Assembly (NCBI GenBank): GCA_948465545.1
Contig: CAOJXO010000001.1
Coordinates: forward strand, 95,728 to 159,727
Length of the DNA: 64,000 nt
DNA from: an uncultured Bacillota bacterium
Lineage (GTDB): Bacteria > Bacillota > Clostridia > Christensenellales > UBA1242
Direction: 5' to 3'
The translations under genes and the position numbers were made by a program. Under the pieces are notes generated by a model, which saw only the letters and a program-made list of their open reading frames with translations, was not told the DNA's origin and searched no databases. This document shows, piece by piece, positions 12,586 to 33,249 of this stretch; position 1 is the first letter of the stretch; every line of letters starts with the position of its first letter.

Positions 12586-15500
12586 TCAATATCTGAAAGC
12601 ATCAGGAACTCCTGTTGCAAACATACCTTCTTGAGTAACATGGTCTATAAATTCTGTTGGAAGTGCTTGGAAAGTCTTTCCTATTTGTTTAGTCTGTATA
12701 TTCTTATAAGAACATTCATTGTCTCCATTTGCTAAAACCGCACCAGCAAAACCACAGTAGTTACCCTCTGCACCAAAATATAGTGCTGGTTGTTCAAAAT
12801 TATTTAGTTCTATCATAAGTGCAGCATAAACCGCAGCCGCAACAATATCCATAAATGGCAATGGACCATCAGACAAAGCGATACCTAAATATACAGCTGT
12901 ATAGCCCGCATTTCGCAGACCTACATTTACACCATCCACACATCCAGCAATTGCAACCCAGCCTTGCATACCGCCATTTCCAGCGCTTGCTCTTTGGCCA
13001 TCTTTTCCATTCTTAAGATACTGATTTGAATTTTCAGTTGAATTTTCAGATGTACCATATAGATACGCTTCGCCTTTTTTGCCACCTGCAACAGCAGCTC
13101 CGCCATTTTTACCAGCAATCTTAGTAACGTCAATACCAGAAGTGGTACTGTTAGAAAGAACATCCCATCCTCTAGCACCATTTTTGCCTACAAATGATGA
13201 ACCACCATTTCCAGCAATAACATACTGGCTGTTTGAGCCAACTTGCTTATCCGTTTCAAAACCTATTGCATAAACATTGCTACCTTGTCCGCCTTGTCTG
13301 CCATTGCTAATTTCATTATAACCATTTCCCCCAATAAGCAACCCATAATTAGTTAAATTATCAATAGTTGCTGTTTCATTTTTATAGAAAATTCCTGTTA
13401 TAATGGTTGACTTAAAGTCTCTACCTGTAGAAGTTATACCATTTATAGCTACAAAGTTTCGAACATTATTTAAAGCACCTTCATTAAAACCAACAAAGCC
13501 ACTTGCTATATATTGATCATATTTTCTAAATTCAGCATTACGAACATTTCCATATGTTGACACATTATGAATGGTTGCCTTATTATAATTAGAAATTATT
13601 GAAGTTGCATAATATCTAGTATTTCCGCCAACCATCTCCTTAACCTCTTCAACATTGCAAGCATTTAATTGCCCTACAACGCTTAAGTCTTTCATAAATG
13701 CCCCATCTGTTGTCGAATCAAACAATGAAGATTGGTCTGAATGATAAGATATAACATAATCATTACCACTTAACCTTCCACTAAACAGAGCATATGAAAC
13801 TTTTCCTAAGTACATATTTCTTGTCAAGATTATACCTTCATAAGAAATCGAATCTCCACTTGGCAATATTGGCATAGCTATTGCATTGTCATTCTCTTGA
13901 CTAGCTATAAATGCACTAATCTCTCCAGTCATGGTGTTTGTTAATAACAACTTATCCTCACCATTAGGTTTATAGTTAAATGTTAAACTGTTAGAGGCAG
14001 AATCATAATTATAGAAAGTTGTTAGATCATCTACATCTACAACTTCATCTTGTAAGTTTGTAAAAGTCAAATCTGACTTGTCATAAACAAGAGTTTGATT
14101 TACTTTATTTAACTCTGCAAGATTAGAATTTATAGACAATTCTTTTGCATTAAACTTAAAGTTGGACTCAAGAGTTAATGATAAATCAATATTATCAGGA
14201 CTATCCAGATAAATTATCTTAGATGTATTTTCACCATTTCGTAAATAAACAATATCTAATCCACTGAGAACAAAATCTTCTTTTGTGAAATGAAGAACGA
14301 CAGGGGGTGTTTCTTCAGGTACTTTATCAGTATAATCCCCTAGATCAATATTATTTTGTTGTTTGGTTATATCAATACTACCATTTGAATAATTTGCCTT
14401 TATTGCTTCCTCAATACTATTATATGTATTTGAACTTCCATATACCGTCCACTTTCCTGTATCTCTATTATACGATGCAAGTTGATACTCTTTAGTGTGA
14501 GTAATGTTGTTAGGATGCTTGTTACCATCTTCATCAATATGAGGGTTATCAGACTGTTCAACCCAAGTGTTTGTATAAGTCCATGTTTCAATATTACCAT
14601 CTAATGTCCAAATATATTGTTCAAACATTTTTTCAACAAATTGCGTTACAGAAGCCAACTTTTCCTCTGTCGTTTTGTCTTTAAGCTCTTTTGAGGCAAG
14701 GTGCAATTCGATTGCTTTCATTATATAGTCATCAATAGTTTTACAGTCTGCATAAGGCTTGTTACCATTTTCATCTACTTGTTCTCTAATTTCTTCCATT
14801 GTATATACAAACTTATATTGAGTAATAGATTTTAAAGTTGTAACCCCATTCGCATTCAAATTATAGTTATAAATGAAACTTGGAGCCATTACATCATACA
14901 TTTTTCCATCTATATTAACGGAGTATTTTTTACCACCAGTAATATTAAATGTCATATCATATGCCGATTCAAAATAAGGTGCAACATTATTCTTTTCATC
15001 ATCTAAACTCATATCAACTTCAAAATGTGTATGATAGATGTTTGATTGAATAGAAAAGTCACTATCTACACTAAATGTTAATGTATTAGTTGCATTAGGC
15101 TGCAATTCAACCTCTGCATTACCAGCAACAAGTGAAAGACCTGAAAATTCAGTTTTCATATATCCACTACTATCTTTATTGTTGGTTATTGTAACATTCA
15201 AATTGTCTGTTGAATAGTTGACATTATAATTTGAATTAAATTTGAATGTGCCATAGTAAACTATAATTCCATTTGCAGATTTACTATTTACTTTACCTAA
15301 TGCATAAGTCATATTTAAAGTATGAATCTTAGACTGACTATTATCAGTAACATCAAACTCAACATCATTTTCCTCAAAAGCAAGGTCAACAAAGTTGTAT
15401 GTGATATTTCCACTCAAAATTCCATTGCTAAATTGTTTGTCATATACTTTATCAACAATAATTTGAGGAAGTACAATTTCTTTTAATTGATAGAAATAAT

Positions 15501-18500
15501 CAACTTCAATAGGAGCATTCTTTTCAAAGTCAAGTGAAGTAACAGTGACTTTATTATCTTCAATAGAAACCTGTAAGTTTCCTAATGTTGCAAACGCTGC
15601 AGCATTGTAACTAACAACTGGGGAATCTCCAATGTAGAACAATGCTTTGTCCCAAGATGAAGCATCTGGAAGAGTGAAACTTGCCGTATTTGAATATGCA
15701 GAAATATTATAATTTAATATTGAATTTATATCATCTGCACTAACATTTTCAAAACTCCACACTCCATCAGCAAATGTTGAAGTATAAGAATCAATTATTA
15801 AATCGTTAACCTTGGTCCAATTTGCCCCATCAAATACAACAAGTTTATTGTCATCTTTATCGGTCACTGTTGCAGTATATCCAGTAGAAGCAAATTGCCC
15901 TTGTATACTTATAGAGTCATAAGTTAATGTAAGAGTATTTAAATAATTTTCAATCTCAGATTGAATATCATCATCTGCATAAACGTCTGATACAATAATT
16001 AAAGTTTCCCCATTTGATGTAATAGTCATATTTATACCATTGATATCAAAGTTTTCAATCTCACTTGACCATACACCAGCTTTAAACACTGCAATTTTCC
16101 CAAGTTTCATATCGGTATTTCCAGACACATTAATTTCAAAAGATGTAATTCTGTCTGTAATATTTTCCTCATCAAACTCTGTCTTTATAATAGGCGCAGT
16201 GATATTATTTACAGTATCTAAAATGCTATAAGTAAAGTCAATAGGGACTCTTGAAGCAACAATATTTCCATTACCACCAGCCGTAAAACTGCTGTTAAAT
16301 TTTTCTGAATTAGAGATGTTTTTGTTACCAGTATAAGAATCACTAACCTTACCTGCACTAGACTTAGGTGCATCTACTGTAAATGTAGACTCAATAGTTA
16401 ATCCATAGTGAATTGTTATTGACTTTCCTGCAAGCATTTCTGGAAGAAGAGTGCTTGTGTTAACCGTATTCAAAACATTGCCATCTGAATTATATAATTT
16501 GAGATTCTTATATAATACTAGGCTCTTATTGCCGTACACAAAGTATAATTCCTTTGTTGTACCATTTGCTTGGTAGGTCGTATAATATGCATTAATAAAC
16601 TCCTCATCGCTATCATTCAATTTTGTTTGATAACCGAAAGCTGAACTATTATCAAAAATAGTTTCAATTAATGCTGTGTACGTATTATCAGAAATATCAA
16701 TTTCAATTCTTCCATCTTCTTCATAATAAGAATACTTATAATTAGTTAAATCTATAGTATATGTTTCATCTAATGAATAACTAATTGAAAGTTTTTTATC
16801 TGCCCAGTTGTTTATTTCTTCTGTTGCATAGATTGAAAGATCAAACACAACTTTTGCATTGCTACCAGAGCCAATTTTATTCCATCCAGTTCCAATAACC
16901 TTAACAATTTTTTCACTATCATCTTTATAATCGAAATTAAAGTTATTATATGAATAATCTCCTTTATCAAACAAGTCTATTATTGTAGGATCTGATGTTG
17001 TATAAGTTGTTGTGTAAATAAGAGCGGAGTTCATAAGATTATAAAGATCTGATCCAGCCTCATTTGCCAAATAATAGTATTTATTATTTATTAAAATGTT
17101 GGTATTTTTATTGTTAGATTTAGTTTCGGATAATACCTTGTTCTTTATATTATTAACATCACCATTATCAGTTGATTTCTTATTTTCATAAAAATTATAC
17201 TTATCAGCTACATAACTGCGATAAGTAGGCGTCTGAGAATCACTTGTCCACGAGTAGTAATCCTCTAAGTCCTTACTATATTTAGTTGTTGAAGCTTCTT
17301 TTATACTTACTCTATGTAAAAGTTTAATATATAAACTTGTAGGGAAACCAAATTCATCACGAGAGGTAATAACAAAGTGATTGTTATCATCCTTTTCCCC
17401 GCCTGACACTTCTTTAAAATAGGATTCATATGAAAATTGATAGTAACGCAACCAACCATCAGTAAAAGTATTAGAATTGGCAGGATATCCCGATATATCC
17501 ATAGTATACTTAGTACCACTAGTAATATCGCCTTTAATCGCACAACCATTCATAACGATTTCCTCGTTTGTATTGTAGTTTGTGCCAGCAATACCTTCAC
17601 TTCCATTATATCCTACACCATAAGCATATACATTTCTAAAAGATTCGGTATAAATCGTGAATGTACGGATTTTTTCATTAGCTGTTTTATTTGTCCTAAT
17701 CTTAAACTCTGAGTTTGTTGCAATAGCCTCAACTGAAGCTTCGTTGAGTGAGTTTGAAACAGAACTACCACCACTATAACCAACAATTCCGCCTGCATAT
17801 TGGGCTGTTGTACATTGTTTATTGCCCGCTTTAACAAGCCCTGAATTGTAGCAATAATCAATTGTAGAATTGTCACTTCTACCAGCAATTCCGCCCGCAT
17901 AGTTGCTTGCACTTGCACTGGTAATTACATATCCGCTTGTTACAGATGAAGTGTTATAGCAATATTCAACATAACTAGAGTTGTATAAATACCCAACAAT
18001 TCCACCTGTGTAAATACTACTTCTTGTACCTGTATTTGTAGTATTAATTGGACCATTATTTGAAGAATGCTTGATTGTTGTATTTTCAGCATAACCAACT
18101 AATCCACCCACATATCTCTTATTTGCATCTACTTTAAGATTACTCATAACAGACGCAATAGTAGAGTTTGTTGCTGTTCCTGTCACACCGCCATATTGAC
18201 CTGCATTATTAGCTTTATCAATAGTTACAATACCGCTTAAAGTTACATTTGATATGATTGTGTTTGTTATTGTTTCGGCAATAACACCTGTATTGCTAGA
18301 TTTATCTCTTATGCCTGTTATAGTAACATCTAAGACATCAACATTTCTCACAAAAGAATTTGTCAACACTTGGAAAAGTCCAGTACCATTGAAATTGTAA
18401 AGTCTGTGTCCTTGTCCGTCTAAATCAAGTGATGCCGTTGACTTAAAATTCTTAATTGTATTTGTTGAATCAAAGTAATTGAAATCAAAGTCATTTCTGA

Positions 18501-21500
18501 TAATCACTTTCTTGTTTTCAGTAATCCCATCATTAACATTTGGCAAATAACTATTCCATACGCCAGCGTTAGGAACAATGTAATATGCCCCCATTACATC
18601 AACAGGACTATTACCCCAAATCTCACTGCCAGTAAGGCGATTATATTCGTATCTTTCTATACCCTTAGTATCATCAGACAAATCAGTATCTTTATCCCCT
18701 CTTGATGCATAAGAACTATACTTCAAATAGTTAAACTGTCTTGTAGGATAACTATAGTTGAACTTGTCGTCTTGAGCCCAGTTGCCTGCATTAAACTTTT
18801 GTTTAATACCTGCCGTAGTTGTTGAACCTATACCATTTGCATTCTTATCATTATAAGTATCTGTAAGTTTTGCTCCATCAAATACCGTTCTATGGCTAGA
18901 GTCAGGTTCTGTATTTGCAGAAGTATGATCGTGCCAGTTAAGATTTGTTGCAGAATAACTATGCCTTATTTCAACTTCGGTTGAAGTATGTTCTCCTCTT
19001 CCTTGTATGAAACCATCGATATGAGTGTCAATATATGACTCTACAATACCAACTGCATATGTATAAGTAACTAAAACATTATTTATATTTTTATTGTTTA
19101 CTTTATTAACATTTGCTATTGCAGAAGCCTGACCGTAGAGAATGCTTCCGCCGTCTTTATATTGACCTGCACGGTAGATGATATGAATGTCTGACACTGA
19201 CTCGGTAATTAAACCATTTGCTATACTACCAACAAGTCCGCCAAGACTGATTGCGGTGTTTCCACCAACACTCATATTTCCAGATACACCGACAGCGTAT
19301 ATAATTCCGCTTTCCATGTAACTAGCCACACCACCGATTGACATTCTTTCTGTTTTGCCCGCTTTTACATTATCGTTATCAATATCAAGCACAATATTCA
19401 AGCCTGAAACAAAGGATTGTCCTTTGATATATTCAATAGGGCTTGCATTTTTGTTTGTATAGTTAATGGTATATCCATCACCTATAATAGCAACATTATC
19501 AAGAGTATTTGTAATTGATTCCATTGATACGGCTTGAGCGTTATCAGCAGAGAAATAATAATATCTCATACCATGTACCTTTTCAAGTTGATCAATTTCT
19601 TCAGTGGCGATCGCACCTGTGAATGATTTAGGGTTGAGTTTTGAGCCCTCGCCAGTTAAAGAAGTAACATTTGACACCCTTGTAAGCATAAATTCTGCAA
19701 GAGCATTTTTCTTTTCAGTAATTCCATCAAAGTACTCATGTCCAGTATATCCACCACCTGTAATACCCTTGTTTGTATCATAAGGGGTCATATACCCAAC
19801 GTCATAAGCATTATTGTCCGTAGTAAGAGTAACAGCATGACTATAGAAATTTCCTGCAGTTTCAGAAATTCCTTGAATATTTCCAAATACAGCATTAATC
19901 TTATCACCGTCATTAGGCCTTTGATCGTTATATGTTGTCATTATATAGTTTTCTTGAATTGGATTTTGAAGTCCAGAAACGTCTAAGCCTCTTCCAATAA
20001 GCCCACCATAATAAACTTGACCATGTTTAGAGAATGTTGTTTCAGTAGTGCTTACAGAATCTATTTTTTCATCTTTATACAAGAAGAAAACATCTCCGAA
20101 TGAGTAGTTGTTTGAAATTTCAACACGTCCTGCTTTGGCATTTGTTCCGCCCATATGTCCAGCATCTGCAAAAGTACCAACAAGGCCACCAATATCAAAT
20201 CCAATATTTTCTGCATTATAAATTTTAATCGCACCACCAAAAGCGGTATCTTTAATATAAATATTTTGACTTTCATCAAGACCAGTAATTCTTCCAACAA
20301 TTCCACCTATACTTGCTTTATGTGAAGTGTAGATCTGTCCAACGAAAGACATATCTGCATAAGAAAGTCCATCATTAACAATGTTTGCAGTTGCACCATT
20401 AGTAAGGTAAATATCTCCAACTAAACCGCCCACATATGCCTGAGTATTTTTATCTCCAAATCCCGCATTTACATCAAGCACACTGCCAACTCTTATAATA
20501 CCTTTGATTGTAAGATCTTTTTCGCTTCTACCAACAAGTCCGCCAACATAGGCATTTTTTTCTGCTCTAACTGATATCGCCTTATAAGGATTGTTGTATC
20601 TAAGAATTTCTTCATCACTTGTTATTGCTAAATTTCCAGTAGTACGTCCAACAAGTCCGCCAACATAGGCATTCTCATTAACTTCAAATGCGTTAAATGC
20701 AAATGTGTTGCCGAGATTGTCGATATAGTTTTTCATAATATCCGCAGAATTATGATATGCAGAAGTAAGTCTTCCACTTACATTTGTAGATTTAAATACT
20801 TCAAAGTTTGTAACAACATTTGAAATTTCAGGTGTGCCATCTGAAGCCATTTGTCCCACAAGTCCACCCAAATAAACATCGTTATTTTTATCACTTGAAG
20901 AATATATTCTTACATTAAATGTCTTAGTTGGAACACTTTCAGTTTTACCTGCAATATTTATTCCAGAACCTTTATACGCACCAAATAATCCACCAGCGTA
21001 AACAATGCTTTGTCCTGTAAAAGTTGATGTATTTCCAGATAATGAAAGGCTGATATTTGTGACTGTATCAATATCCGCAAATGTAACAGTATCAATATTG
21101 CTTGCAAGTCCCGCATAACCACCAATGTAAATATTATCGTGATTATAATTTACATTGATTGTTTCCGAAACATTGTTAAGTTGAGTAATACCTTTCCAGT
21201 CATTACCTTGAATTTGTGTATAGGTATTGCCCACTTTACCAATTTGAATATTAAGTTTTGTAGGAGTTAAGTCGTTGCCATTATCATCTTTACCGCTCTC
21301 CTTTAAAACTTCTCCAAAATAAGCACCTACATAAACATTGTTATTAGAAGTGTTTGAATTATTTATAAGGTTACCAGAAGCATCTGTGTAATTATAAATA
21401 TTTACGTTTTGAATATTCATAATTCTATTTTCGCTGTTTTGCGTTGCCTTTCCAGCAATAAGTCCTACCCTTGTCGCATCAGTACTCAAGAACACCTGAC

Positions 21501-24500
21501 CTGATTCTGGCAAATTGATAAAGATGTTAAAGTTTGAGATTGATGTGTTTGTAATTGTAGGTGCTAATAAGCCAACCTCACTATCATTATTACTATTATA
21601 GAAATAAACATTGTGAGTAAATTCAAACTGAACATTATCTAACACCGCCAACATCATGTTGCTATTAGAGAAAGCCCCTTTATAATCGCTGTCACTAGAG
21701 AATATTGTCTTATTAGTAATTTCTCCAAGAACGGGGTCTTTATAAGGTCTAAACTTCACAGAAACATTTGACATTCTGAAGCCTGCAGAAGTGCCATTAA
21801 AGAGCGGTCTATCAAGAAGAAGTGCTGGCCATTCTTGAGGGTAACCTTGAATAGACACTTGTTGCCCTACCTGCCATCCGATAAGTCTTCCTCTGAAGTT
21901 TTCAATTCCATCTTTAAATGTAATATCGTTTCGTTGTAAAAATCCTGCTATATCAATGTGTGCCTTAGTTTCACTGCCAGCTGCAGTAAGTCCCCTTACA
22001 CGCACTTCAATATCAGAGTTTTGCATACGTGTTAACGCAGCCCTAATAGAAGCATCATAAGCATCAAGATAGATGTAAGGTCTTTCCACTATAGAGAATT
22101 TGATACGTGGATATAATGAATCTGAGTCATGATACCAGTTGTTCATAGACCAAACATCACTGCCAAGGAACACGCCATAAGTATCATCATATCCAGTTTC
22201 TGCACTAGGATATGTAGACACACTAGGGATAGCCATAATGTTGTGAAGATTTCCCTCTTCATTTACATTAATATCACCAACACGATAAGGCTCGTTAGGA
22301 TAAGCAAAAAGTTTGATTGTATCAAGCGTGTTGATTGAAGAAACATATTGTCTTACCGCCCCAACTGTAACATAGCGTTTTGTGCCTGCCGCAGCGGCTT
22401 CATCGTCATCAGCGGCTTTAGTAACAACAAGGAAGTTAAAGTCGTTTTGGTTTTCATAGTTACCTATAATAGCATAAACATTAATCTTGTCAAAAGAGTA
22501 AATGTTGTACTCAATAGGTTGCTCGTTTTCGTCCAAGTCTGTGCTAACTTTAGACATATAGAAATCTTCCGCTCTGTACTGTACTTCTTCAGCATAATCA
22601 TAGGTTGAAAGGAAGTTAACAGCATTTACAGACTCTAAGATTATATTTGAACCACGTGAGACAGAGCCGATAATTCCACCTGCGGCATTTTTAGCACGCA
22701 CATCACCAGTTGCATACACTTCGTTCATATAGTACTTAGTCACTATATTGTCAGTACCATCAGAAATGTAATATACACCACTGTTTGTTGTGTTTACATA
22801 TCCGATAACACCGCCTGCATATCTAGCAAGCATATCTACAACATTAAGTTTTGAATAAGAAACAGTAAGTTGTCCGCTTCCTGCGTAACCAACAAGTCCG
22901 CCAACATATATTTGAGAATAATCTTTATCAATTCCCTCAGTGCTGAAAATTGTTGTGCTTCCACGTTCAGCATTATTGCTTCCGCTATAGTAAGTAAGCA
23001 GATTGTTTTCAATGGTATTTTGAGTTGTTTCATCATACTCACTGAAAAGTTGAATGTAATTGCCATAGCCTTGACCAACAATTCCACCTGCGTAGAATTT
23101 AGTTGCAACAAGGTGTGAAACAGGCTCGCTGGCAGGGTCTGTGAAGATTGCACCAGTATCTTTTATGTCAGTATGAACACCAGCAAAACCAACAACTCCG
23201 CCGACAACCTGACCTTGAACATTGATAGCCCCTTGCACCCTTACTTTTGAAAGTTCATAATCGCTTGATTGCATTTCTGTTTTATGTTGATAATCAGCCA
23301 CCATGCTTTCTTGTTCTGTAAAGATATCAACATAACCAAACGCACCACCAGCATATGACATGTTGCTGATAAATGCAACAACATTGTTAAGCATATTAAC
23401 ATTTGCTTCTGACAAGAAGATGTCACCGATTTGTTGAATAAGAAGCATACGAAGTTCAAATGCTGTTTGTGCTGAGAATGTTGCAACATTTCTCGTCATA
23501 CCGATATTTGAAGTTGCACCTTCTTGGCTTTCAATTCCAACTTCGTTGTATCTGTCTGCAATCACATTAGGGTCAATTACATTTACATTCTTAACTTTAG
23601 AGTCGCCAAACATCATGCCGACAACCCCACCAACAAAGTTAAGACCTTCAACAACGCAGTCTTTATTGTTTGTAATTTGGATATTTACAAGGTTTGAATT
23701 TTTTGCATAACCCGCAATACTTCCAACAAAATTTGCAAGGTTGTTTACTACTTGATTTACTGTGATATTAAGATTAATAATACTTGCACCTTCGATTGAT
23801 GCGAATAAACCAAAAGCAATCATATCTTCGCTTGAAGTGATTGAAAGATTAGCGATTGTAAAGCCGTTACCAAATAAGTTTCCAGTAAACGCCTTGTTTA
23901 TAGAAGGCAAGTCGATTGTGCCCTCTTCTTCGTTATCCCCACCTGAAACAACAAGGTCAGAGAAATCCAAATCAGATACAATGCGATAATTTCCATTTAT
24001 TCTTGTTTTTGTGAAATATGAAGATATATATGTAGATGTACTTTTTCCAGTAACATTAACAAATTCTTGTGCGTTTCTAATAATAATAGGGTTGTTTTCT
24101 GAACCGTAGTTTGCATTAATTAAACCGCGTTCTGAATTATACAATGTTGAGTAAGGAAGGAAGTATTGCCCCTCCTCTTCGCCTGCAAGATAATACCTGC
24201 TTGAATATGCAATTTTGTTTGGTTCAACAAGTGTTAAAATCCCCTCGCTTGCGATTAAAGACCAAACCCCATTTATTGAATTTTCACTTGAATTGAATGC
24301 GAAGCCATAGAAATAAGTTTCGTCGTCAAGTTCTGATAATTGCACTGCACGAGTGTTATAACTTTCCTCAGTAGAATCATCATTGCCAAGACTTTGAGCG
24401 TTGTAGTAATAGCAATTAATGTAAGAGCCTGTTGCAAGTAAATTACCTTTTTCGTCTACACCAGAGAAGTTCATCTGTGAGTATACAAGGCTGGTAATTT

Positions 24501-27500
24501 GAGATGCAGAAAAGCAGTTTTCAAGAGTGCCAGTGTTTTCATAAACAAATCCTGAAACAAGGTATGCTTGATTTTCATTTGAAGTATTTGAAATTAAAAT
24601 GTTTGAATATGCATCTTGGATTTTACCATCATTTTGATATACGAAACCTGCAATCTTGCCAAGGCTTGAACTAAGGCTTGAACCTTGTCTGCAGAATACA
24701 TCTTTAGGTTTATCTTCTTTAACACCTTCAACATAAGATGTTAAAATCTGACTGTTGTTGTTTGCAACAAAACCAGCAGTAATGCTTCTTGTGCTTGCTG
24801 TTTGGTTTTGCATGCCAAAGTTTTTAACAAAACTTGAAGCGATAGTTCCTGCATTTTCAAGAACAAAGCCTGCTATATTTCCCTGAGCGATTATGTTGAA
24901 TTTTTCAAGATAGGTCTTATCAAGGAAGTAACCGATTGTTTGTCCTTGTGAGTCAGTATAATTTTCTCCGATTGTGTATACATCTGAGCCACCTACACGA
25001 CTGTTTGTAATTGAGCCATTGTTTGTGATTACAAAGCCTGCTACATTTGACACTGCTGGATCTGACATGTATTCAGGTTGGGTTACACCCTCGCCTCTTA
25101 CATATTTAACAACAATACCAGTATCGCCATTTATAACTGCACCTGTAACCCCATTTTTCTGGAAGGAAACAACTTCGCAGTTGGTAATAATACCATTGTT
25201 TGTAATTGCAAGACCTGCAATATTTATAGATGAGTAGTTAGGGTTTGCAACATTGACGGTAATCTGTCCACCATTGTAAACATTCACCCTAATATTTTTA
25301 AGAGTAGTTGTGCTTGCAACATTATTAAATAATGCAAAATTTAACGATGCAGTATCTTCAGGATTTGGATTAAACCAATCTATATATATAGTATAACCAT
25401 TTCCATCAAGACTTGCGATTGCATTTGTATCAATAGGAGTATAGTTTCTAAGCACAATGTCATTCATTAAGATATAGTTTTGGGCGTCACCCTCTGCCAT
25501 ATCCATGAAATCATCTTCGCTGTAAACAAGAAGTGGAGTATCCTCATCTGAATAAACCTTAACAAGAACATTAAAGTAATAGTAATAGTCATTGTAAGTT
25601 TCACCCACCTGAACCGTGGTTTGAAGTCTAAGAGAAATAGGTGCGTTGTCTGTGGTTGGACGTAAACCTTTAACAAAAAGAATATTATCTCTTTCATTAT
25701 ATGTCCATTCTAAATAGCCACCAACCGAACTATACTCTCTACCATTGTATACAGACATCCAGTTGTTATTTACATTTGAATAATAATCAAGGCGAGTATT
25801 CACAGTTTTTGGTTGTGATGGAATAGGATTGCCATTGTTATCACGAGCATAGTTGATATAATAACCCGCATCTTCATCTTTGAAATAAGAATTCCTTTCA
25901 AACGAATTGATATTCGCTTTAATAGCATTTACATTGTCAACACTTTCTTGATCGCTTGGGTCATAAGTGTAGTTTTCTGGAAGAATAGGATATTTAAATT
26001 GAAGAGGCTCAGAAAGTCCTAAATAAGTGACAAAGGTGTCATTCTCAGCATTTGCAATAGAAATATTATCTGCGTCAACCTTAAAGTCAACAAGGTTTAC
26101 CTCAGCATATGCTGTTTTACGCTCTTCATAACCATTGCTGGTTCGTGACACTGTCACTGAAATTCTAAACATTCCATTTGCGTCATCTTTAAGTTTTGCA
26201 TTAATAGACGCTGAGATTCTTGATGTATAAACTACCACGCCAGCATTGCTGTCATCAATCTCCCAGTTAGTATTAAATAATGTAATACCGCTTACTACAT
26301 TTTCAACAATCGTAGAATTGATATCCACATTTTGGTCGGCAGGAACAACAATCTTCACCTCCGCCGTTTGCCCCTTTGCAAGTATGGCTGTTGAATAACC
26401 ATCTACAAGAACCTGAGGCTCTGCAAGATAACTTATTGTAAGGTTGTAATTTGCATAGGTTATCTCTTCGCCATTTGAATCGTAGAATCTGATAGTAAAT
26501 TTTAAAGCAACATCATCTTTTTGCTGAATTGCATTGTTTGCCCAAATCTTGAAGTAAAGGTCATAGTTCTCTTTTGCTTCACCACTAGGTATAACGCTTA
26601 TTCCGTTTGTAATAAGGTCTACTTGCGACTTAGTGTCTTCATAATATCTACCATAGATATCTTGTGTCATGAAGTTTATTGTTGCAGCGCCTATCATAGA
26701 TGCACCACTATATTCCATTGTGAAATGATGATAGTATGCGTATTGAGGGTTAACATTTACTTTAAGAAGACTACTGCTTCCAGGTGCAAGGATTCCACTG
26801 GTTGCATTACTTACCTCATATTTGTTTACATAAACATCTCTATCCTCGCCATAGCCACCTATTTTTTCATAGAGCATATTGTTTACTCTATAATTTGAAA
26901 TTGCAATGTTAGTAAATTCCTGTCTTGAAACAATCAGGTCAAAATCCTCTTCTACCACTTGATATAATGAAGAAAGTGAAATGTTATAGGTTTGAGTTTC
27001 AGAAATCTCTGCTCTATAATCTCTAACAACGCTTAAATATACCGTAAAGTTTAATGTATAAAGTCCGTCAACAGCCACCGCTGATTCGTTGCCTGCATCA
27101 GGAACAATCTGTATTAAAATTTGTTCCTGCTTGTCACGGCTAGCAGTCCATGTGCCATTATCGTTTACAACACTAAGGTCAACACTTCCACCAGCCAACA
27201 TTAATTTTACATTAGGTGTAAGGACATCGTCTTTTGCACCAGAGATAAGTTGTACCCTAACTACGCCCATTGAAGAAGGTGTAATTGAAACCTCGTTATT
27301 TGTTGCACCAATTGAAATTGCACCGTCGAATAAGTTTAAACTATAATTCTTTGCAAACTGAGTGCGAATCACATCACTTATTACATCTGACACCTGTTCG
27401 TCAAGGCCTAAAAGTCTAACATAGGTGTTAATCTCGGCATTTTCACTATCCTTATTTGTAACAAGGTTTAATATAGTTTTATTAGTTCCAGTAGTTTCAA

Positions 27501-30500
27501 CAATAATTGTATTTGAAGATGGAACATGGTTAAGTTCATACTCATTAGGAATAAGGTCAAAGACATTTCCACGATTTCCTAGATACATGCTTGCATGTTC
27601 GAAATTATAAGAAACCGTAAGCGACCTTCCCCTTTGAAGATTGATTACACTTCCGTTTGTAATATTCTCACTGCCACCTTGATATGCCCATGACGCATTT
27701 AAATCCGAAAGTGCATTAATTACATAAACGGTAATCGCTTTATTTAATGAATAGTCTTGTTTGCTTGAAATTGTCAGTGTCACCACGCCAGTATCTTTAA
27801 CAACAATGCTATTTGCATTTATATCTACAATACTTGTATCCGCACAGCCAACAACAAGTCTGTCTGCATCTTTGCTGTCAAGAAGTGAAGCAAGTGAAAT
27901 TGTGTTAAGACTTTCAAGAGCCATCTTTTCATTGTCTGTCATAAAAGCATAATCTCTTGAATCCACAGCATATCTGAACAAGATTGCCTCGCTAGTGCCA
28001 ACCTTTAATGCTTTATAAACATTATTACCTTCTTTAAGCACATCCACAACTTCATAGCCACTTACATTTGTAAGAGGTTCTGCTTGATAAACATTTTTAA
28101 GGTGAGCCATTCCGCCATTTACATAAGCCATAAAACTTGAAGAGTTTGGATTATTTGGTTTAGCCCAAATGTCAAGGCTAAGTGCAGCCTCGTTATCATT
28201 CTTCATACCATTGATATAGAAGTCTGAAACATAACCTGAATAAGAGTAGTAGGAAATATAAGTGTTATCTAATTGACTAAACACCCCACTTGATGTTGTG
28301 AAATATCTGTCTTCAATATTAACAACTGCAAACGACTTTGTTACATTTACACTGCTGTTTGCAAATCCCACAAACGCACTTCTGTGTGAACCTACAAGGT
28401 TAACGCCAGAATTTTCTGTCATAGTATAATCGTAGATATATGACTCTGTAATATTACCGCCGTCAAGATATCCAACAAAACCACCTACATATTCACCAGT
28501 AATTGTGTTTGCACCAGTTTCAAAATTGTAAATTTCAAAACTAGAACCTTTAATATTACCACCTTCATTCTTACCAGCAAATCCACCTACGTAACTTCCA
28601 GTTGTGCCAGCAACAATTTTCAATCCTAATACTTTTACATTTGATAAAGAAGCAAAGTTTTCGCCTACAACACCACCTACATAAGTTTTGGTTGTTCCGT
28701 CAAGTGTGCTAGGTTTATATACGCTACGACTTATACCAGTATCAGAATCTGTTTCAATCTCTGCATTCACGTCAATTATAACATTTTCAATAGTACCATA
28801 GTTTGAGTTTGCTACGAAACCACCACCTGCCACATTACCCGTAAAGGTAATATCACTAATAGTACCATGGTTTGTATTAACAAAACTTTCTCCGTTGATT
28901 GTTATTGTGATATTTTCATTATCCCCCCTAATTCCACCTGTAAGGTTTTCAATGCTAGTCCATGAGTCAAGGGTGATATTATTCATTACTCTGTAATATT
29001 TGTTTGATTCAAATTTTGTTTTAAAATCTTCTTCAGAATAGATGTGATACTCATAATCTCTAGAGCCATCAGCAACCATAACTGAAATTCTAATAAGAAT
29101 ATTTGAGAATGGAATTTCTTCATTTTTATTATTAATAAAGTAAGCGTTTTCATAAAGGTAATCAAACCATGTGGTTGTACCCTCTTTGATTTTTCCTAAA
29201 TTATCAAGAGATTCATTTTGGCTTATAGGATTGCCAAGTCCATCAAGGTCTGCAAGTTTATCAAAGTAAAAAATTCTACCTTGATTGATTGCGTCCTGTG
29301 GAAGAACATATATATATCCCGCTTTGCCTTCGCTTGCTGTTAACACCACTTGTCCATTATTATCAACATTTTTTACCTCTACAAAATTATCAGGGGTTGG
29401 ATTTCCCGCTTTGTCAGTAATGTGATAATAAAGTTCTTTTGTTTTGGCATTTGATGGAGCAGAAGAAATAACTAAGATAGATGGTTCAGTATCATTAACC
29501 TCAAAATAGATTCCGCCCTCTGCTTCATTTTCCCAAACAAGGCTTTCTATTCTATCGGCATTCACAATTTTAACATTAACAACGCCGTTAGGATTAACGT
29601 TTACTTCCTGCTTATCGGTGTTATAGTATCTTATTGTAAGCACATCATCAAAGTTTTGAACACCTTTAGTTGAAAGTCCATTGATAACAAAACTTAAATA
29701 AGTATCTGTTAAAACGATGTTAGAGATGTTGTAATATCCCTCAACCCAGGTGACACTATCACCAAGCATTGTACCAGCACCACCCATTCTGTTTGAATAG
29801 AATGTAAAATAGTCAAGGCTTGAATAAGTTAAAGGCACTTCGCTAAGAGTAATTCTTACTTCCGCCTTTGTTTCTTCACGATCCTTTGTAGAGACAGAAT
29901 CATAAGCATAAAGGTTTACAAAGGTTGGATTAACAGAAAATTCGGTTGGAGCAACATAGTTTTCAATCAAAACAATTCTTACAAATGTAACTTCATTGCC
30001 AAGTGTATCAAGTCCAGTAAAACTAACAACAAGATAGGTGTATCCCGTACGGTTGGTTGTTGTAAGCGACGTGGTTGTCACGTTAACAAAACTACTACTT
30101 GCCTTCCTTGCTGGATTGTTATAAATATCATTTGCAGTTTGACCTAAGAATACATCAAGGTCAGCACTTTCATCATAGTCAAGGAATGAGAATCTAATAC
30201 GTGCATCCGCATAATTTCCATTCGCACGGTTTTTAATAAATGTAAGTGGAACGCTAGACCCAGTCCTGACAAGCAAACTTGAAACGCTTGCAGAAGGGGT
30301 TGTTGCATTCTCCAAAGCGCCATCATTTAAGATATAAAGATTATTATTAAATTGTGCTTTTGTAACTGCGGAACTGCTTTCATAATCTATCCTAGCATCA
30401 GTTAAAGGAAGGAAAAGTTTAACATCAAAGGCGTCACTTGAAAGCCCATTTTTGTGTCTGATTCTATAAGAGCAATCTTTGGTAAGTCCAATACTGTTTG

Positions 30501-32220
30501 CGTCCACCTTGAATTTTACTCTAAATGTAACACTTCCGTCAGCATCTGTGGTAAATCCAATAGGCTCGATTGATGAAGCGGTAAACCCTTCACCTATAGT
30601 TTCCACCATTAAACCTTCAATAGAAGTTTGACCTCTTAAAACAAAAATCTTTTCTTCTTCTGAGGTTGTCATTGTTGAAAGACGTAATGAAGCATCAAAC
30701 CCCTCATACTCTTCAAACTTTATGTTGCTTGCTGACTTATATAAGTTAAGGGTGTATACACTGCTTACATTCGGATTATCAATAGACCTAAGAGTTAATT
30801 TAACATTTGAAATTGAACTATTGACAAACTCCTCGCTGGCAAGAATGTAAAGTTCGGTAGATGAAGTAAGTGTGCTTTCTATGCTATCAAATATAAGGTC
30901 ACTATTTGAATTTGTCCCCATAAAAATCTGGCCGTAACTACCGCTCATATTTCGATAGTAGAACTGCAAAGTGTCCTTATTAACATTGTTATTTTGAAGA
31001 TCTCTAGAATTACAGTTGTTGTAATCTACACTAAGGCTATATTTGCCAGTAGCATTATGTACCCCCGTTGGGGTTAATTCCACCCTATATTTTGCACCAT
31101 AAGGAGATGCATAAGTGGTGTATATTGATTGTACTGAAGAAGCCGCATTGCTGTTTTCCTCAGTATAGAGATTAATATCTCTTATTTTCTCATAACAATT
31201 AATGTTAAAACTGTTTGACTTTATTGCATAATCATATCCCTCATAGCCAACATTGAAGTATGAAGTAAATGCACCATTCACATTTGTTTTTAAGGCTTTA
31301 ACCTCATAAATTAAATAACCCTCTTCTTCACTCTGGCTCTGTTTTAAAATTGAGATGTTGGCAACATCCTCCTTGCCATTAAATAAAACAACTGGTTGTG
31401 GCAAAATAGGCTCGTTTCCATTATATCTAAAACGTATATAAGCGGTGTACGCACTGTCGGTAGAAATATTAGGTACAATAGAAATTGTTTCGCTATCTAA
31501 TGGAGTAAAGTCCTGACTTAGGCTGTAAGAATACTCCATTTTAATTGAACTTGCAGATAATGCGTTAAGCACAAACAATTTAACTGGTGTTGATTCGCCA
31601 GACTCTGCTGTCGCGATAAGAGTGATATAACCTTCATTATCTGCAACAAACCCTTCTGTAAGGGTTAAGGTATTTCCAACAAGGGTTGCATTGTTTGCAT
31701 CAACACCTTGAGCGAAAGACCATGTGATGTTTCTTCTTGCAGTGGCTGGATAAACAGTAATCAACTCCTTGTCGTCAAGGGTAACAGTGCCACCACGAAT
31801 AGCATACATCTTGCTTTGCCCTGTTTGAGAATCATCTTTTTGAGTCATGGATTTAACTTCACTGTAAACAGTAACAGAAACAATAGTCTTAACGCTACTG
31901 TCATAATCGCTTGTAATTATAATATCAGCATCACCCTCAGCAATAGCATTGATTGTAATATCATTTTTCCCAGTGATAGAGTTATACACAACAGAGGCTG
32001 AGGCAATGTTTTCATAGGAAGAAGAAGCCGTAACCCTTCCCTCGTCAATTCCGTTGACTGTGGCAGAGATTAAAGCCTTATGTTCTGAATCGTCATTTAA
32101 ACAAATATCAACATGCTGCTTGTCAAGGTCGATAGTAACAGTGGGGCTGCCACAAGCAGAAAGAATACTTCCGCCAAGAAGTATAATTGTACTTAAAAGT
32201 CCTACCCAAAACTTTTTCAT
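12586..32220 (-). CDS. giant surface lipoprotein (~6544 aa) with Big_2-like Ig domains and many GLUG-type/parallel-beta repeats
   Basis: A single uninterrupted 19.6-kb ORF. The likely start is MKKFW at 32220, preceded by AGGAGGAAAA. It has a signal peptide and lipobox (LLGGSILSAC). An N-terminal Big_2-like segment reads ITINAIAEGDADIIITS. There are dozens of x-Y-[VA]-G-G-[LIFV]-[VAI]-G-x repeats, including the CYN[ST][GS] context typical of GLUG motifs. I saw no LPXTG. Confidence 0.9.
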   Translation of the reverse strand: MKKFWVGLLSTIILLGGSILSACGSPTVTIDLDKQHVDICLNDDSEHKALISATVNGIDEGRVTASSSYENIASASVVYNSITGKNDITINAIAEGDADIIITSDYDSSVKTIVSVTVYSEVKSMTQKDDSQTGQSKMYAIRGGTVTLDDKELITVYPATARRNITWSFAQGVDANNATLVGNTLTLTEGFVADNEGYITLIATAESGESTPVKLFVLNALSASSIKMEYSYSLSQDFTPLDSETISIVPNISTDSAYTAYIRFRYNGNEPILPQPVVLFNGKEDVANISILKQSQSEEEGYLIYEVKALKTNVNGAFTSYFNVGYEGYDYAIKSNSFNINCYEKIRDINLYTEENSNAASSVQSIYTTYASPYGAKYRVELTPTGVHNATGKYSLSVDYNNCNSRDLQNNNVNKDTLQFYYRNMSGSYGQIFMGTNSNSDLIFDSIESTLTSSTELYILASEEFVNSSISNVKLTLRSIDNPNVSSVYTLNLYKSASNIKFEEYEGFDASLRLSTMTTSEEEKIFVLRGQTSIEGLMVETIGEGFTASSIEPIGFTTDADGSVTFRVKFKVDANSIGLTKDCSYRIRHKNGLSSDAFDVKLFLPLTDARIDYESSSAVTKAQFNNNLYILNDGALENATTPSASVSSLLVRTGSSVPLTFIKNRANGNYADARIRFSFLDYDESADLDVFLGQTANDIYNNPARKASSSFVNVTTTSLTTTNRTGYTYLVVSFTGLDTLGNEVTFVRIVLIENYVAPTEFSVNPTFVNLYAYDSVSTKDREETKAEVRITLSEVPLTYSSLDYFTFYSNRMGGAGTMLGDSVTWVEGYYNISNIVLTDTYLSFVINGLSTKGVQNFDDVLTIRYYNTDKQEVNVNPNGVVNVKIVNADRIESLVWENEAEGGIYFEVNDTEPSILVISSAPSNAKTKELYYHITDKAGNPTPDNFVEVKNVDNNGQVVLTASEGKAGYIYVLPQDAINQGRIFYFDKLADLDGLGNPISQNESLDNLGKIKEGTTTWFDYLYENAYFINNKNEEIPFSNILIRISVMVADGSRDYEYHIYSEEDFKTKFESNKYYRVMNNITLDSWTSIENLTGGIRGDNENITITINGESFVNTNHGTISDITFTGNVAGGGFVANSNYGTIENVIIDVNAEIETDSDTGISRSVYKPSTLDGTTKTYVGGVVGENFASLSNVKVLGLKIVAGTTGSYVGGFAGKNEGGNIKGSSFEIYNFETGANTITGEYVGGFVGYLDGGNITESYIYDYTMTENSGVNLVGSHRSAFVGFANSSVNVTKSFAVVNIEDRYFTTSSGVFSQLDNTYISYYSYSGYVSDFYINGMKNDNEAALSLDIWAKPNNPNSSSFMAYVNGGMAHLKNVYQAEPLTNVSGYEVVDVLKEGNNVYKALKVGTSEAILFRYAVDSRDYAFMTDNEKMALESLNTISLASLLDSKDADRLVVGCADTSIVDINANSIVVKDTGVVTLTISSKQDYSLNKAITVYVINALSDLNASWAYQGGSENITNGSVINLQRGRSLTVSYNFEHASMYLGNRGNVFDLIPNEYELNHVPSSNTIIVETTGTNKTILNLVTNKDSENAEINTYVRLLGLDEQVSDVISDVIRTQFAKNYSLNLFDGAISIGATNNEVSITPSSMGVVRVQLISGAKDDVLTPNVKLMLAGGSVDLSVVNDNGTWTASRDKQEQILIQIVPDAGNESAVAVDGLYTLNFTVYLSVVRDYRAEISETQTYNISLSSLYQVVEEDFDLIVSRQEFTNIAISNYRVNNMLYEKIGGYGEDRDVYVNKYEVSNATSGILAPGSSSLLKVNVNPQYAYYHHFTMEYSGASMIGAATINFMTQDIYGRYYEDTKSQVDLITNGISVIPSGEAKENYDLYFKIWANNAIQQKDDVALKFTIRFYDSNGEEITYANYNLTISYLAEPQVLVDGYSTAILAKGQTAEVKIVVPADQNVDINSTIVENVVSGITLFNTNWEIDDSNAGVVVYTSRISASINAKLKDDANGMFRISVTVSRTSNGYEERKTAYAEVNLVDFKVDADNISIANAENDTFVTYLGLSEPLQFKYPILPENYTYDPSDQESVDNVNAIKANINSFERNSYFKDEDAGYYINYARDNNGNPIPSQPKTVNTRLDYYSNVNNNWMSVYNGREYSSVGGYLEWTYNERDNILFVKGLRPTTDNAPISLRLQTTVQVGETYNDYYYYFNVLVKVYSDEDTPLLVYSEDDFMDMAEGDAQNYILMNDIVLRNYTPIDTNAIASLDGNGYTIYIDWFNPNPEDTASLNFALFNNVASTTTLKNIRVNVYNGGQITVNVANPNYSSINIAGLAITNNGIITNCEVVSFQKNGVTGAVINGDTGIVVKYVRGEGVTQPEYMSDPAVSNVAGFVITNNGSITNSRVGGSDVYTIGENYTDSQGQTIGYFLDKTYLEKFNIIAQGNIAGFVLENAGTIASSFVKNFGMQNQTASTRSITAGFVANNNSQILTSYVEGVKEDKPKDVFCRQGSSLSSSLGKIAGFVYQNDGKIQDAYSNILISNTSNENQAYLVSGFVYENTGTLENCFSASQITSLVYSQMNFSGVDEKGNLLATGSYINCYYYNAQSLGNDDSTEESYNTRAVQLSELDDETYFYGFAFNSSENSINGVWSLIASEGILTLVEPNKIAYSSRYYLAGEEEGQYFLPYSTLYNSERGLINANYGSENNPIIIRNAQEFVNVTGKSTSTYISSYFTKTRINGNYRIVSDLDFSDLVVSGGDNEEEGTIDLPSINKAFTGNLFGNGFTIANLSITSSEDMIAFGLFASIEGASIINLNITVNQVVNNLANFVGSIAGYAKNSNLVNIQITNNKDCVVEGLNFVGGVVGMMFGDSKVKNVNVIDPNVIADRYNEVGIESQEGATSNIGMTRNVATFSAQTAFELRMLLIQQIGDIFLSEANVNMLNNVVAFISNMSYAGGAFGYVDIFTEQESMVADYQHKTEMQSSDYELSKVRVQGAINVQGQVVGGVVGFAGVHTDIKDTGAIFTDPASEPVSHLVATKFYAGGIVGQGYGNYIQLFSEYDETTQNTIENNLLTYYSGSNNAERGSTTIFSTEGIDKDYSQIYVGGLVGYAGSGQLTVSYSKLNVVDMLARYAGGVIGYVNTTNSGVYYISDGTDNIVTKYYMNEVYATGDVRAKNAAGGIIGSVSRGSNIILESVNAVNFLSTYDYAEEVQYRAEDFYMSKVSTDLDENEQPIEYNIYSFDKINVYAIIGNYENQNDFNFLVVTKAADDDEAAAAGTKRYVTVGAVRQYVSSINTLDTIKLFAYPNEPYRVGDINVNEEGNLHNIMAIPSVSTYPSAETGYDDTYGVFLGSDVWSMNNWYHDSDSLYPRIKFSIVERPYIYLDAYDASIRAALTRMQNSDIEVRVRGLTAAGSETKAHIDIAGFLQRNDITFKDGIENFRGRLIGWQVGQQVSIQGYPQEWPALLLDRPLFNGTSAGFRMSNVSVKFRPYKDPVLGEITNKTIFSSDSDYKGAFSNSNMMLAVLDNVQFEFTHNVYFYNSNNDSEVGLLAPTITNTSISNFNIFINLPESGQVFLSTDATRVGLIAGKATQNSENRIMNIQNVNIYNYTDASGNLINNSNTSNNNVYVGAYFGEVLKESGKDDNGNDLTPTKLNIQIGKVGNTYTQIQGNDWKGITQLNNVSETINVNYNHDNIYIGGYAGLASNIDTVTFADIDTVTNISLSLSGNTSTFTGQSIVYAGGLFGAYKGSGINIAGKTESVPTKTFNVRIYSSSDKNNDVYLGGLVGQMASDGTPEISNVVTNFEVFKSTNVSGRLTSAYHNSADIMKNYIDNLGNTFAFNAFEVNENAYVGGLVGRTTGNLAITSDEEILRYNNPYKAISVRAEKNAYVGGLVGRSEKDLTIKGIIRVGSVLDVNAGFGDKNTQAYVGGLVGDIYLTNGATANIVNDGLSYADMSFVGQIYTSHKASIGGIVGRITGLDESQNIYIKDTAFGGAIKIYNAENIGFDIGGLVGTFADAGHMGGTNAKAGRVEISNNYSFGDVFFLYKDEKIDSVSTTETTFSKHGQVYYGGLIGRGLDVSGLQNPIQENYIMTTYNDQRPNDGDKINAVFGNIQGISETAGNFYSHAVTLTTDNNAYDVGYMTPYDTNKGITGGGYTGHEYFDGITEKKNALAEFMLTRVSNVTSLTGEGSKLNPKSFTGAIATEEIDQLEKVHGMRYYYFSADNAQAVSMESITNTLDNVAIIGDGYTINYTNKNASPIEYIKGQSFVSGLNIVLDIDNDNVKAGKTERMSIGGVASYMESGIIYAVGVSGNMSVGGNTAISLGGLVGSIANGLITESVSDIHIIYRAGQYKDGGSILYGQASAIANVNKVNNKNINNVLVTYTYAVGIVESYIDTHIDGFIQGRGEHTSTEVEIRHSYSATNLNWHDHTSANTEPDSSHRTVFDGAKLTDTYNDKNANGIGSTTTAGIKQKFNAGNWAQDDKFNYSYPTRQFNYLKYSSYASRGDKDTDLSDDTKGIERYEYNRLTGSEIWGNSPVDVMGAYYIVPNAGVWNSYLPNVNDGITENKKVIIRNDFDFNYFDSTNTIKNFKSTASLDLDGQGHRLYNFNGTGLFQVLTNSFVRNVDVLDVTITGIRDKSSNTGVIAETITNTIISNVTLSGIVTIDKANNAGQYGGVTGTATNSTIASVMSNLKVDANKRYVGGLVGYAENTTIKHSSNNGPINTTNTGTRSSIYTGGIVGYLYNSSYVEYCYNTSSVTSGYVITSASASNYAGGIAGRSDNSTIDYCYNSGLVKAGNKQCTTAQYAGGIVGYSGGSSVSNSLNEASVEAIATNSEFKIRTNKTANEKIRTFTIYTESFRNVYAYGVGYNGSEGIAGTNYNTNEEIVMNGCAIKGDITSGTKYTMDISGYPANSNTFTDGWLRYYQFSYESYFKEVSGGEKDDNNHFVITSRDEFGFPTSLYIKLLHRVSIKEASTTKYSKDLEDYYSWTSDSQTPTYRSYVADKYNFYENKKSTDNGDVNNIKNKVLSETKSNNKNTNILINNKYYYLANEAGSDLYNLMNSALIYTTTYTTSDPTIIDLFDKGDYSYNNFNFDYKDDSEKIVKVIGTGWNKIGSGSNAKVVFDLSIYATEEINNWADKKLSISYSLDETYTIDLTNYKYSYYEEDGRIEIDISDNTYTALIETIFDNSSAFGYQTKLNDSDEEFINAYYTTYQANGTTKELYFVYGNKSLVLYKNLKLYNSDGNVLNTVNTSTLLPEMLAGKSITIHYGLTIESTFTVDAPKSSAGKVSDSYTGNKNISNSEKFNSSFTAGGNGNIVASRVPIDFTYSILDTVNNITAPIIKTEFDEENITDRITSFEINVSGNTDMKLGKIAVFKAGVWSSEIENFDINGINMTITSNGETLIIVSDVYADDDIQSEIENYLNTLTLTYDSISIQGQFASTGYTATVTDKDDNKLVVFDGANWTKVNDLIIDSYTSTFADGVWSFENVSADDINSILNYNISAYSNTASFTLPDASSWDKALFYIGDSPVVSYNAAAFATLGNLQVSIEDNKVTVTSLDFEKNAPIEVDYFYQLKEIVLPQIIVDKVYDKQFSNGILSGNITYNFVDLAFEENDVEFDVTDNSQSKIHTLNMTYALGKVNSKSANGIIVYYGTFKFNSNYNVNYSTDNLNVTITNNKDSSGYMKTEFSGLSLVAGNAEVELQPNATNTLTFSVDSDFSIQSNIYHTHFEVDMSLDDEKNNVAPYFESAYDMTFNITGGKKYSVNIDGKMYDVMAPSFIYNYNLNANGVTTLKSITQYKFVYTMEEIREQVDENGNKPYADCKTIDDYIMKAIELHLASKELKDKTTEEKLASVTQFVEKMFEQYIWTLDGNIETWTYTNTWVEQSDNPHIDEDGNKHPNNITHTKEYQLASYNRDTGKWTVYGSSNTYNSIEEAIKANYSNGSIDITKQQNNIDLGDYTDKVPEETPPVVLHFTKEDFVLSGLDIVYLRNGENTSKIIYLDSPDNIDLSLTLESNFKFNAKELSINSNLAELNKVNQTLVYDKSDLTFTNLQDEVVDVDDLTTFYNYDSASNSLTFNYKPNGEDKLLLTNTMTGEISAFIASQENDNAIAMPILPSGDSISYEGIILTRNMYLGKVSYALFSGRLSGNDYVISYHSDQSSLFDSTTDGAFMKDLSVVGQLNACNVEEVKEMVGGNTRYYATSIISNYNKATIHNVSTYGNVRNAEFRKYDQYIASGFVGFNEGALNNVRNFVAINGITSTGRDFKSTIITGIFYKNETATIDNLTNYGLLIGGNGYNEISNGRQGGQGSNVYAIGFETDKQVGSNSQYVIAGNGGSSFVGKNGARGWDVLSNSTTSGIDVTKIAGKNGGAAVAGGKKGEAYLYGTSENSTENSNQYLKNGKDGQRASAGNGGMQGWVAIAGCVDGVNVGLRNAGYTAVYLGIALSDGPLPFMDIVAAAVYAALMIELNNFEQPALYFGAEGNYCGFAGAVLANGDNECSYKNIQTKQIGKTFQALPTEFIDHVTQEGMFATGVPDAFRY

Positions 32221-32394
32221 TTTTCCTCCTTGTTTAATATTTGCAATTTGACAATTCTTAATCAATTTAACTGCCAATATTCTACAAAATTAAACCTTCT
32301 GTAAAAAGTATAAAATTCAACAAGAAAAATGTCAAATAAATAATTATTAAATTAAAATAAATAATTATATATTATTCGTCCTCTTGCCTTAATT

Positions 32395-32424
32395 TCAGTT
32401 TAATAAATCCCCCCCCCGCGTCAA
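32395..32424 (-). promoter_or_regulatory. candidate promoter of the giant gene with a G9 homopolymer in the spacer
   Basis: On the - strand: TTGACG (32424-32419), c, G9 (32417-32409), atttat, then TAAACT. That gives a 16-nt spacer made mostly of the G tract. The tract is ~190 nt upstream of the start codon. Confidence 0.4.
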
Positions 32425-32544
32425 GTATTTACCTAAAATTTTATACGCAAAATTAGAGTGTTAAATATGCAAATATTTTTTTTGCATTAAATTATTGATT
32501 TTTAAATCTTTTTTTGATATATTTTTCATATCTACGAGGTAAAT

Positions 32545-33249
32545 ATGCAAAAAATCTTAGGCGGACTTAGAAAAATATGTGAAGAATTTAATTTAATAGA
32601 AAATGGAGATAAAATTGCGGTAGGCTTATCTGGCGGAAAAGATAGCACCACCCTTCTGTCTGCACTTGCAAAATACAGCGAATTTAGCAAAGAAAAATTT
32701 TCTCTTGTTGCAATCGCCGTAGATTTAAGTGACGGAAAGATGGATTACACCCCATTACAAAAATTCTGTGATGAATTAAAAGTCCCTTTCCATTTAGTAC
32801 CTTCAAATGTTTTTGAGGTGGTTTTTGATATTAGAAAGGAGAAAAACCCTTGCAGCCTATGTGCAAATATGCGAAGAGGAATATTAAACAGCACCGCAAA
32901 AGAACTTGGCTGCAATAAAGTTGCATTAGGTCATCACCAAGACGACTTAATCGAAACTTTTGTTATTTCTCTCTTTTTTGAAGGTAGACTTTCCACATTC
33001 AAACCTATGACATATCTTTCGAAAACTGACCTTCATGTAATCAGACCCCTTCTCTATTGCAGTGAAAAAGAAATAATAAATGTTTCTAAAAATTATCCTA
33101 TAATTACAAATGTATGTCCCGCCAATCATAAAACCGAAAGAGAAACAGCAAAAGAAATTCTTGAAAAATTAGACAAAAAATATCCAGACGCAAAAAAGAA
33201 GATTTTTAATGCAATTATTCACAAAGAAAGATACAATTTGTTTGATTAA
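32545..33249 (+). CDS. ttcA: PP-loop ATPase, TtcA-family tRNA 2-thiocytidine biosynthesis protein
   Basis: SGGKDS PP-loop and the PCSLCANMRRG cysteine motif typical of TtcA. Confidence 0.8.
   Translation: MQKILGGLRKICEEFNLIENGDKIAVGLSGGKDSTTLLSALAKYSEFSKEKFSLVAIAVDLSDGKMDYTPLQKFCDELKVPFHLVPSNVFEVVFDIRKEKNPCSLCANMRRGILNSTAKELGCNKVALGHHQDDLIETFVISLFFEGRLSTFKPMTYLSKTDLHVIRPLLYCSEKEIINVSKNYPIITNVCPANHKTERETAKEILEKLDKKYPDAKKKIFNAIIHKERYNLFD

Follow-up and report, generated by a model that had tools for sequence, protein, structure and literature searches.

A length-polymorphic C9/G9 tract between the divergent promoters of ttcA and a giant predicted lipoprotein gene in an uncultured Clostridia lineage

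Phase variation through a homopolymer in a promoter spacer is known from the poly-G tract of porA and the poly-C tract of opc in Neisseria meningitidis, and from the poly-A tract of vlp in Mycoplasma hyorhinis. A sigma-70-type promoter varies in strength when its spacer changes between 15 and 18 nt. Repeat-slippage loci have been described mainly in small-genome pathogens; among gut commensals, most known phase variation involves invertible promoters. Homopolymers prone to slippage are as such familiar from the vicinity of surface-protein genes; the instance reported here is new and belongs to a clade in which loci of this kind have hardly been described. Repeats may also act from outside the core promoter. 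The TAAA repeats of nadA modulate this adhesin gene through NadR operators and IHF (PMC2791445), and the T-tract of sabA, which abuts the −35, works as a rheostat via the alignment of a UP-like element (PMC4081817).

The tract studied here is a run of nine C, or nine G on the opposite strand, between two divergent genes. It resembles those of porA, opc and vlp in being a slippage-prone G/C homopolymer upstream of a predicted surface-protein gene, with a length that differs both between and within lineages, and −35-like and −10-like hexamers can be drawn around it. In porA, opc and vlp, however, the tract lies in the spacer of a mapped promoter that is the only relevant one, whereas here 73 nt separate the tract from a conserved, near-consensus promoter downstream of it, the hexamers that enclose the tract are of chance level and species-specific, the length range is narrower and the locus is known from sequence alone. 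With nadA and sabA it shares its place as an intergenic repeat that precedes the −35 of a gene of adhesin type, and the predicted effect would be graded and not on/off. Unlike the tract of sabA it does not abut the −35, and unlike that of nadA, which is flanked by mapped NadR operators, it has no recognisable operator or regulator. The likeness to ordinary hypermutable intergenic microsatellites lies in a single long run, recurrent changes of one unit up or down, an occasional interrupting substitution and restriction to one lineage. Unlike those, the tract is situated between two divergent promoters and beside the gene of a 6,544-aa lipoprotein, which leaves room for a regulatory role.

The intergenic region in question covers 32221-32544 of the window, by which we mean the whole 64-kb stretch of DNA that was analysed. 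It measures 324 bp with 22% G+C, in agreement with the preliminary description, in which it was called AT-rich and upstream of a giant gene. That gene (12586..32220, − strand) begins with an ATG at 32220, preceded by AAGGAGGA. The N-terminus of its product, MKKFWVGLLSTIILLGGSILSAC, reads as a lipoprotein signal peptide with an LSAC lipobox. GLUG motifs (PF07581, E = 1e-8), seen when the protein was searched in 1,000-aa pieces, were the only Pfam matches; two 3,270-aa halves gave no Pfam match, and a PDB sequence search with the first 1,200 aa found no relative. The signal peptide and the GLUG motifs fit a surface product downstream of the tract, as in the surface-antigen switches to which the preliminary description likened it, and the predicted protein may reasonably be named a giant surface lipoprotein. 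Its called length ranges from 6,465 to 6,553 aa among strains. Orthologues are called beside ttcA in three sister species, and 18 species retain a divergent gene that starts with MKKF... and has the same promoter. Some 145 nt downstream of the stop codon, at 12434-12442, lies the only A run of nine in the window.

On the other side of the intergenic region, ttcA (32545..33249, + strand) is transcribed away from the giant gene. Its product is tRNA 2-thiocytidine synthetase-like (PF01171), and close relatives are named TtcA by NCBI. A scan of genome contigs with TtcA returned relatives only, the best of them, from the next species, at 78% identity, and the TtcA relatives place the window in an uncultured gut Clostridia/Firmicutes lineage represented by MAGs only. 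A consensus scan places a putative ttcA promoter at 32495..32523 on the + strand (TTGATT, a 17-nt spacer with TG, TATATT), from which the TSS would lie near 32530; the three sister species show the arrangement ATTATTG...17...TATATT upstream of ttcA as well. The −35 of the ttcA promoter in the window is closely preceded, at 32462-32487, by a palindrome, ATGCAAA-TAT-TTTTTTTGCAT, with a run of eight T (32476-32483). The T8 occurs in the strain of the window only, and every other same-species assembly that reaches the run has T7. Around the ttcA start codon (32540-32558) the sequence TAAATATGCAAA is repeated 78 nt upstream. The palindrome and the repeat may represent an operator or the remnant of a small duplication.

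The order of the leftward giant gene, the rightward ttcA, a gene for a 181-aa protein and iPGM is conserved in the sister species. Some 4 kb away from the tract, a tyrosine integrase of phage type (PF00589, 36717-38063) adjoins a MobL-family relaxase (PF18555, 38496-39701) on the − strand, and the pair probably belongs to an integrative mobilisable element beside the iPGM gene.

The nine C occupy 32409-32417 and were confirmed in the sequence, which on the + strand reads ...TTAATAAAT-CCCCCCCCC-GCGTCAAG...; over 32395-32424 the letters are TCAGTTTAATAAAT-CCCCCCCCC-GCGTCAA. No other C or G run longer than six is present in the 64-kb window, in which runs of nine or more would be expected 0.02 times if bases were independent and 0.04 times under a first-order Markov model. 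Extrapolated, such runs would occur about once in a genome of 2-3 Mb, and one other C9 was found in approximately 490 kb of related low-GC Clostridia loci. The tract is thus unusual locally but not extraordinary genome-wide. The tract was found in every one of approximately 30 independent same-species assemblies that reach its position, and is therefore not an assembly artefact of the window.

The position of the tract relative to the promoters is decisive for its interpretation. On the strand of the giant gene the letters are exactly as the preliminary description gave them, TTGACG-c-G9-ATTTAT-TAAACT with a 16-nt spacer, and they constitute a candidate promoter here termed P2 (−35 at 32424..32419, −10 at 32402..32397, − strand). 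P2 matches the consensus in 9 of 12 positions. The scan returned eight sites at or above this score, compared with 3.5 +/- 2.2 in shuffles of the same 800 bp. The best promoter match in the region was another, P1, with TTGACA at 32335..32330, a spacer of 17 nt and TATACT at 32312..32307 on the same strand, which agrees with the consensus in 11 of 12 positions. For the 18 species that carry the divergent MKKF... gene beside ttcA, an alignment was made of the 150 nt that precede this orthologue. All 18 have TTGAC[A/T], a spacer of 17-18 nt and TATA[A/C]T at the corresponding place, at distances of 69-109 nt between the −10 and the ATG, and the spacer sequence itself has diverged. In comparative analysis, hexamers and spacing that are kept around a diverged spacer are the classical mark of a functioning sigma-70-type promoter, and on these grounds the TSS of the giant gene would lie near 32300.

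The comparative evidence consequently places the promoter of the giant gene with confidence at 32335..32307, and this corrects the earlier assignment, in which the tract was inside the promoter spacer. The tract is 73 nt off, and P2 is of shuffle-level quality in a segment that the related species examined do not share. Since a conserved, near-consensus P1 stands downstream of the tract, changes in the P2 spacer cannot turn the gene off, and the classic on/off switch through the spacer that had been envisaged is unlikely. Annotation of the tract as a promoter-spacer switch is not warranted without transcript evidence. The proposal that it remains unsettled which of the two genes the tract affects was a fair one, as the divergent core promoters on its two sides both lie downstream of the tract and at nearly equal distances: the gap to the −35 is 73 nt for P1 and 77 nt for ttcA, which puts the tract at approximately −109 to −117 from the predicted TSS of the giant gene and −113 to −121 from that of ttcA.

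The transcript from P1 would have a leader of 86 nt (32221..32306, − strand) that carries the RBS AAGGAGGA at 32225-32232 and a strongly conserved proximal segment. The last approximately 35 nt of the leader and the first codons (ACAAATATTAAACAAGGAGGAAAAATGAAAAAGTTT, 32221-32260, − strand) are nearly invariant in most of the 18 species, and the remainder of the leader diverges. This invariant end could be a translational or RNA-level control element, or merely a strong RBS. When 31900-32900 was searched against Rfam (E <= 1), three chance-level hits were the only outcome, with no known leader or riboswitch among them.

The tract lies in a segment of 93 bp (32368..32460) with 34% G+C, richer than the 16-18% of the intergenic remainder. 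The intergenic regions of the three sister species are shorter (270-280 bp) and contain no C or G runs of five or more, and in 21 related genome loci none of six or more was found in the region upstream of ttcA (up to 450 nt). A counterpart of the 32368-32460 segment was not found in the related species examined, and a short-word BLAST of the 106 bp at 32360-32465 against the window and approximately 500 kb of related loci returned nothing significant. The flanks of the tract have no further copies within the window, and 0 hits came from a JGI metagenome scan in which a gap of variable length was allowed between them. That the segment is a repeated or mobile element was rejected, since there is no second copy in the window or in the approximately 500 kb of related loci.

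Variation in tract length between strains, the first check named in the preliminary description, was borne out at the level of consensus contigs. Seven TtcA variants of the species (at least 97% identity) were looked up in public assemblies, and this gave the approximately 30 loci that reach the tract; the lengths were taken from consensus contigs and not from reads. Fourteen intergenic haplotypes were distinguished, of which C9 is the commonest tract allele: it is carried by the strain of the window, by three further assemblies that are 100% identical to the window, and by all haplotypes other than those with C8 and the clonal series described below. C8 was found in two loci (L011 and L020) on differing SNP backgrounds, and this change has accordingly arisen at least twice. 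The clonal series consists of nine SRR29855xxx assemblies that are identical over 4.69 kb when the tract is masked, so that the tract is their only variable site. Six of them carry C8TC, two carry C9TC and one carries C9, and no variation is seen in seven A/T runs of 7-8 nt within these loci. By a rough count at least 4 events have affected the tract, compared with about 20 variable sites in the other approximately 320 intergenic positions. In all strains sampled at least eight uninterrupted C are kept, a length capable of slipping (approximately 8 or more for G/C).

These alleles support a slippage-type hypermutability of the tract, as judged from the assembled sequences. The C9/G9 mononucleotide repeat would gain and lose units by slipped-strand mispairing, which is presumably the cause of the length changes, and populations of one clone would come to carry differing tract lengths. 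The repeat would do so outside the spacer of P1, midway between two divergent core promoters and in a lineage-specific segment. The most plausible hypothesis, which we consider probable though by no means assured, is that the tract is hypermutable with no or a weakly modulatory effect, near-neutral, and not an on/off phase switch; a strong effect on expression would then be absent. The retention of at least eight C in every strain would be expected under selection on length too, and would be compatible with neutrality at a divergence of 2-5%. Whatever its effect, a length change at clone level beside a giant lipoprotein gene would provide a cheap marker of within-host population dynamics, and if the tract does affect transcription, it would exemplify stochastic variation of the surface in a group that has received little study.

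The alternative closest to the original proposal is that P2 functions as a second, upstream promoter, in which slippage would shift the spacer from 15 to 18 nt and thereby vary the share of P2 on top of P1. The alleles seen would indeed set P2 spacers at 15, 16, 17 and 18 nt, the hexamers are present with T1, A2 and T6 of the −10 kept, and the gene on this side encodes a predicted surface lipoprotein. The finding of a G9 in a much better promoter spacer in another Clostridia MAG makes such an arrangement plausible in the class. The P2 hexamers are also unchanged in all strains of the species, that is, in the 14 haplotypes, while nearby positions vary (a T/C position in the spacer and bases just upstream of the −35). 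With approximately 6% of intergenic positions variable, however, chance alone would leave all twelve hexamer bases unchanged in about half of cases. Moreover, a score of 9/12 is at chance level in DNA this AT-rich, P2 lacks the extended −10 TG and is absent from all related species examined, and next to the universally conserved, near-consensus P1 it could not silence the gene. Tract lengths (8-9 pure, 10-11 interrupted) span a narrow range compared with classical contingency loci. We therefore regard a functional P2 as unlikely, though it deserves to be kept in mind.

The clonal series invites a further reading. Different samples of one clone, otherwise unchanged over 4.69 kb, have three alleles as their consensus, and selection on the tract may have contributed to this besides a high mutation rate. 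The tract might then be a working contingency element, in which slippage stochastically tunes the 6,544-aa GLUG lipoprotein via a weak upstream promoter or via the spacing of a distal site, and the majority alleles of the clone would be the outcome of in-host selection. We hold this to be unlikely; if true, it would to our knowledge be the first documented variable surface-protein locus in commensal Clostridia that is based on a repeat and not on an inverton, found from metagenomes alone.

Less probable than a functional P2 is a rheostat by distal spacing, with the tract altering the helical phasing or distance of an upstream regulator or UP-like site relative to P1, to the ttcA promoter or to both. 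Consistent with it are the location of the tract, which has a divergent promoter on either side with the −35 boxes 73 and 77 nt away, and the compositionally distinct 93-bp segment, which could hold a protein-binding site. Adhesin genes modulated by tracts outside the core promoter provide the precedent (PMC2791445, PMC4081817), but the sabA type of effect requires the tract to be next to the −35 (PMC4081817), whereas here 73 nt intervene. No regulator site is recognisable in the segment, which shows neither conservation beyond the species nor a convincing palindrome, and the neighbours (iPGM, the 181-aa protein, uvrB and radC) include no adjacent regulator gene. Such a rheostat is accordingly improbable.

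It is likewise improbable that the length variation is technical, with homopolymer errors or bubble-popping in low-coverage metagenome assemblies disguising a stable C9 of no biological role. All the evidence does consist of consensus contigs, some of low coverage (cov 2.2-7.6 in ENA contigs), and the extra T of C8TC is an odd product of pure slippage. The short metagenome contigs L123 (1-9) and L030 (1-10) end at the C tract or 1 nt away from it. A de Bruijn assembler can break contigs at a repeat of heterogeneous length, and these ends are weakly suggestive of length heterogeneity within a sample; low coverage would end contigs likewise. Against a technical origin, C8TC was recovered from six separate runs, with five of the six contigs 48-64 kb long, and C9TC from two; C8 occurs in two unrelated studies; and the A/T runs of the clonal loci are free of noise. 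At normal depth, Illumina indel errors at a 9-mer are much too infrequent to change a consensus.

An invertible promoter was also considered and rejected, as the inverted-repeat search gave no convincing arms (complementarity is only 74% in the longest, of 23 nt, and the two that match perfectly measure 10-12 nt) and all aligned same-species loci are collinear with the window.

The G9 in the other uncultured Clostridia MAG lies at L067:1435-1500 (CAMRUG010000003.1), as C9 on the + strand and G9 on the − strand. There, TTGACT is followed by a 19-nt spacer made up of TTTTCTAATC and the G9, and then by TATACT. A gene whose product is hydrophobic, at least 478 aa long (MAKNKKVENLTPDQ...) and probably located in the membrane has its ATG, together with AGGAGGG, approximately 20 nt beyond the TATACT. 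With this arrangement, L067 makes a clearer case than the tract in the window as a candidate for promoter-spacer homopolymer switching.
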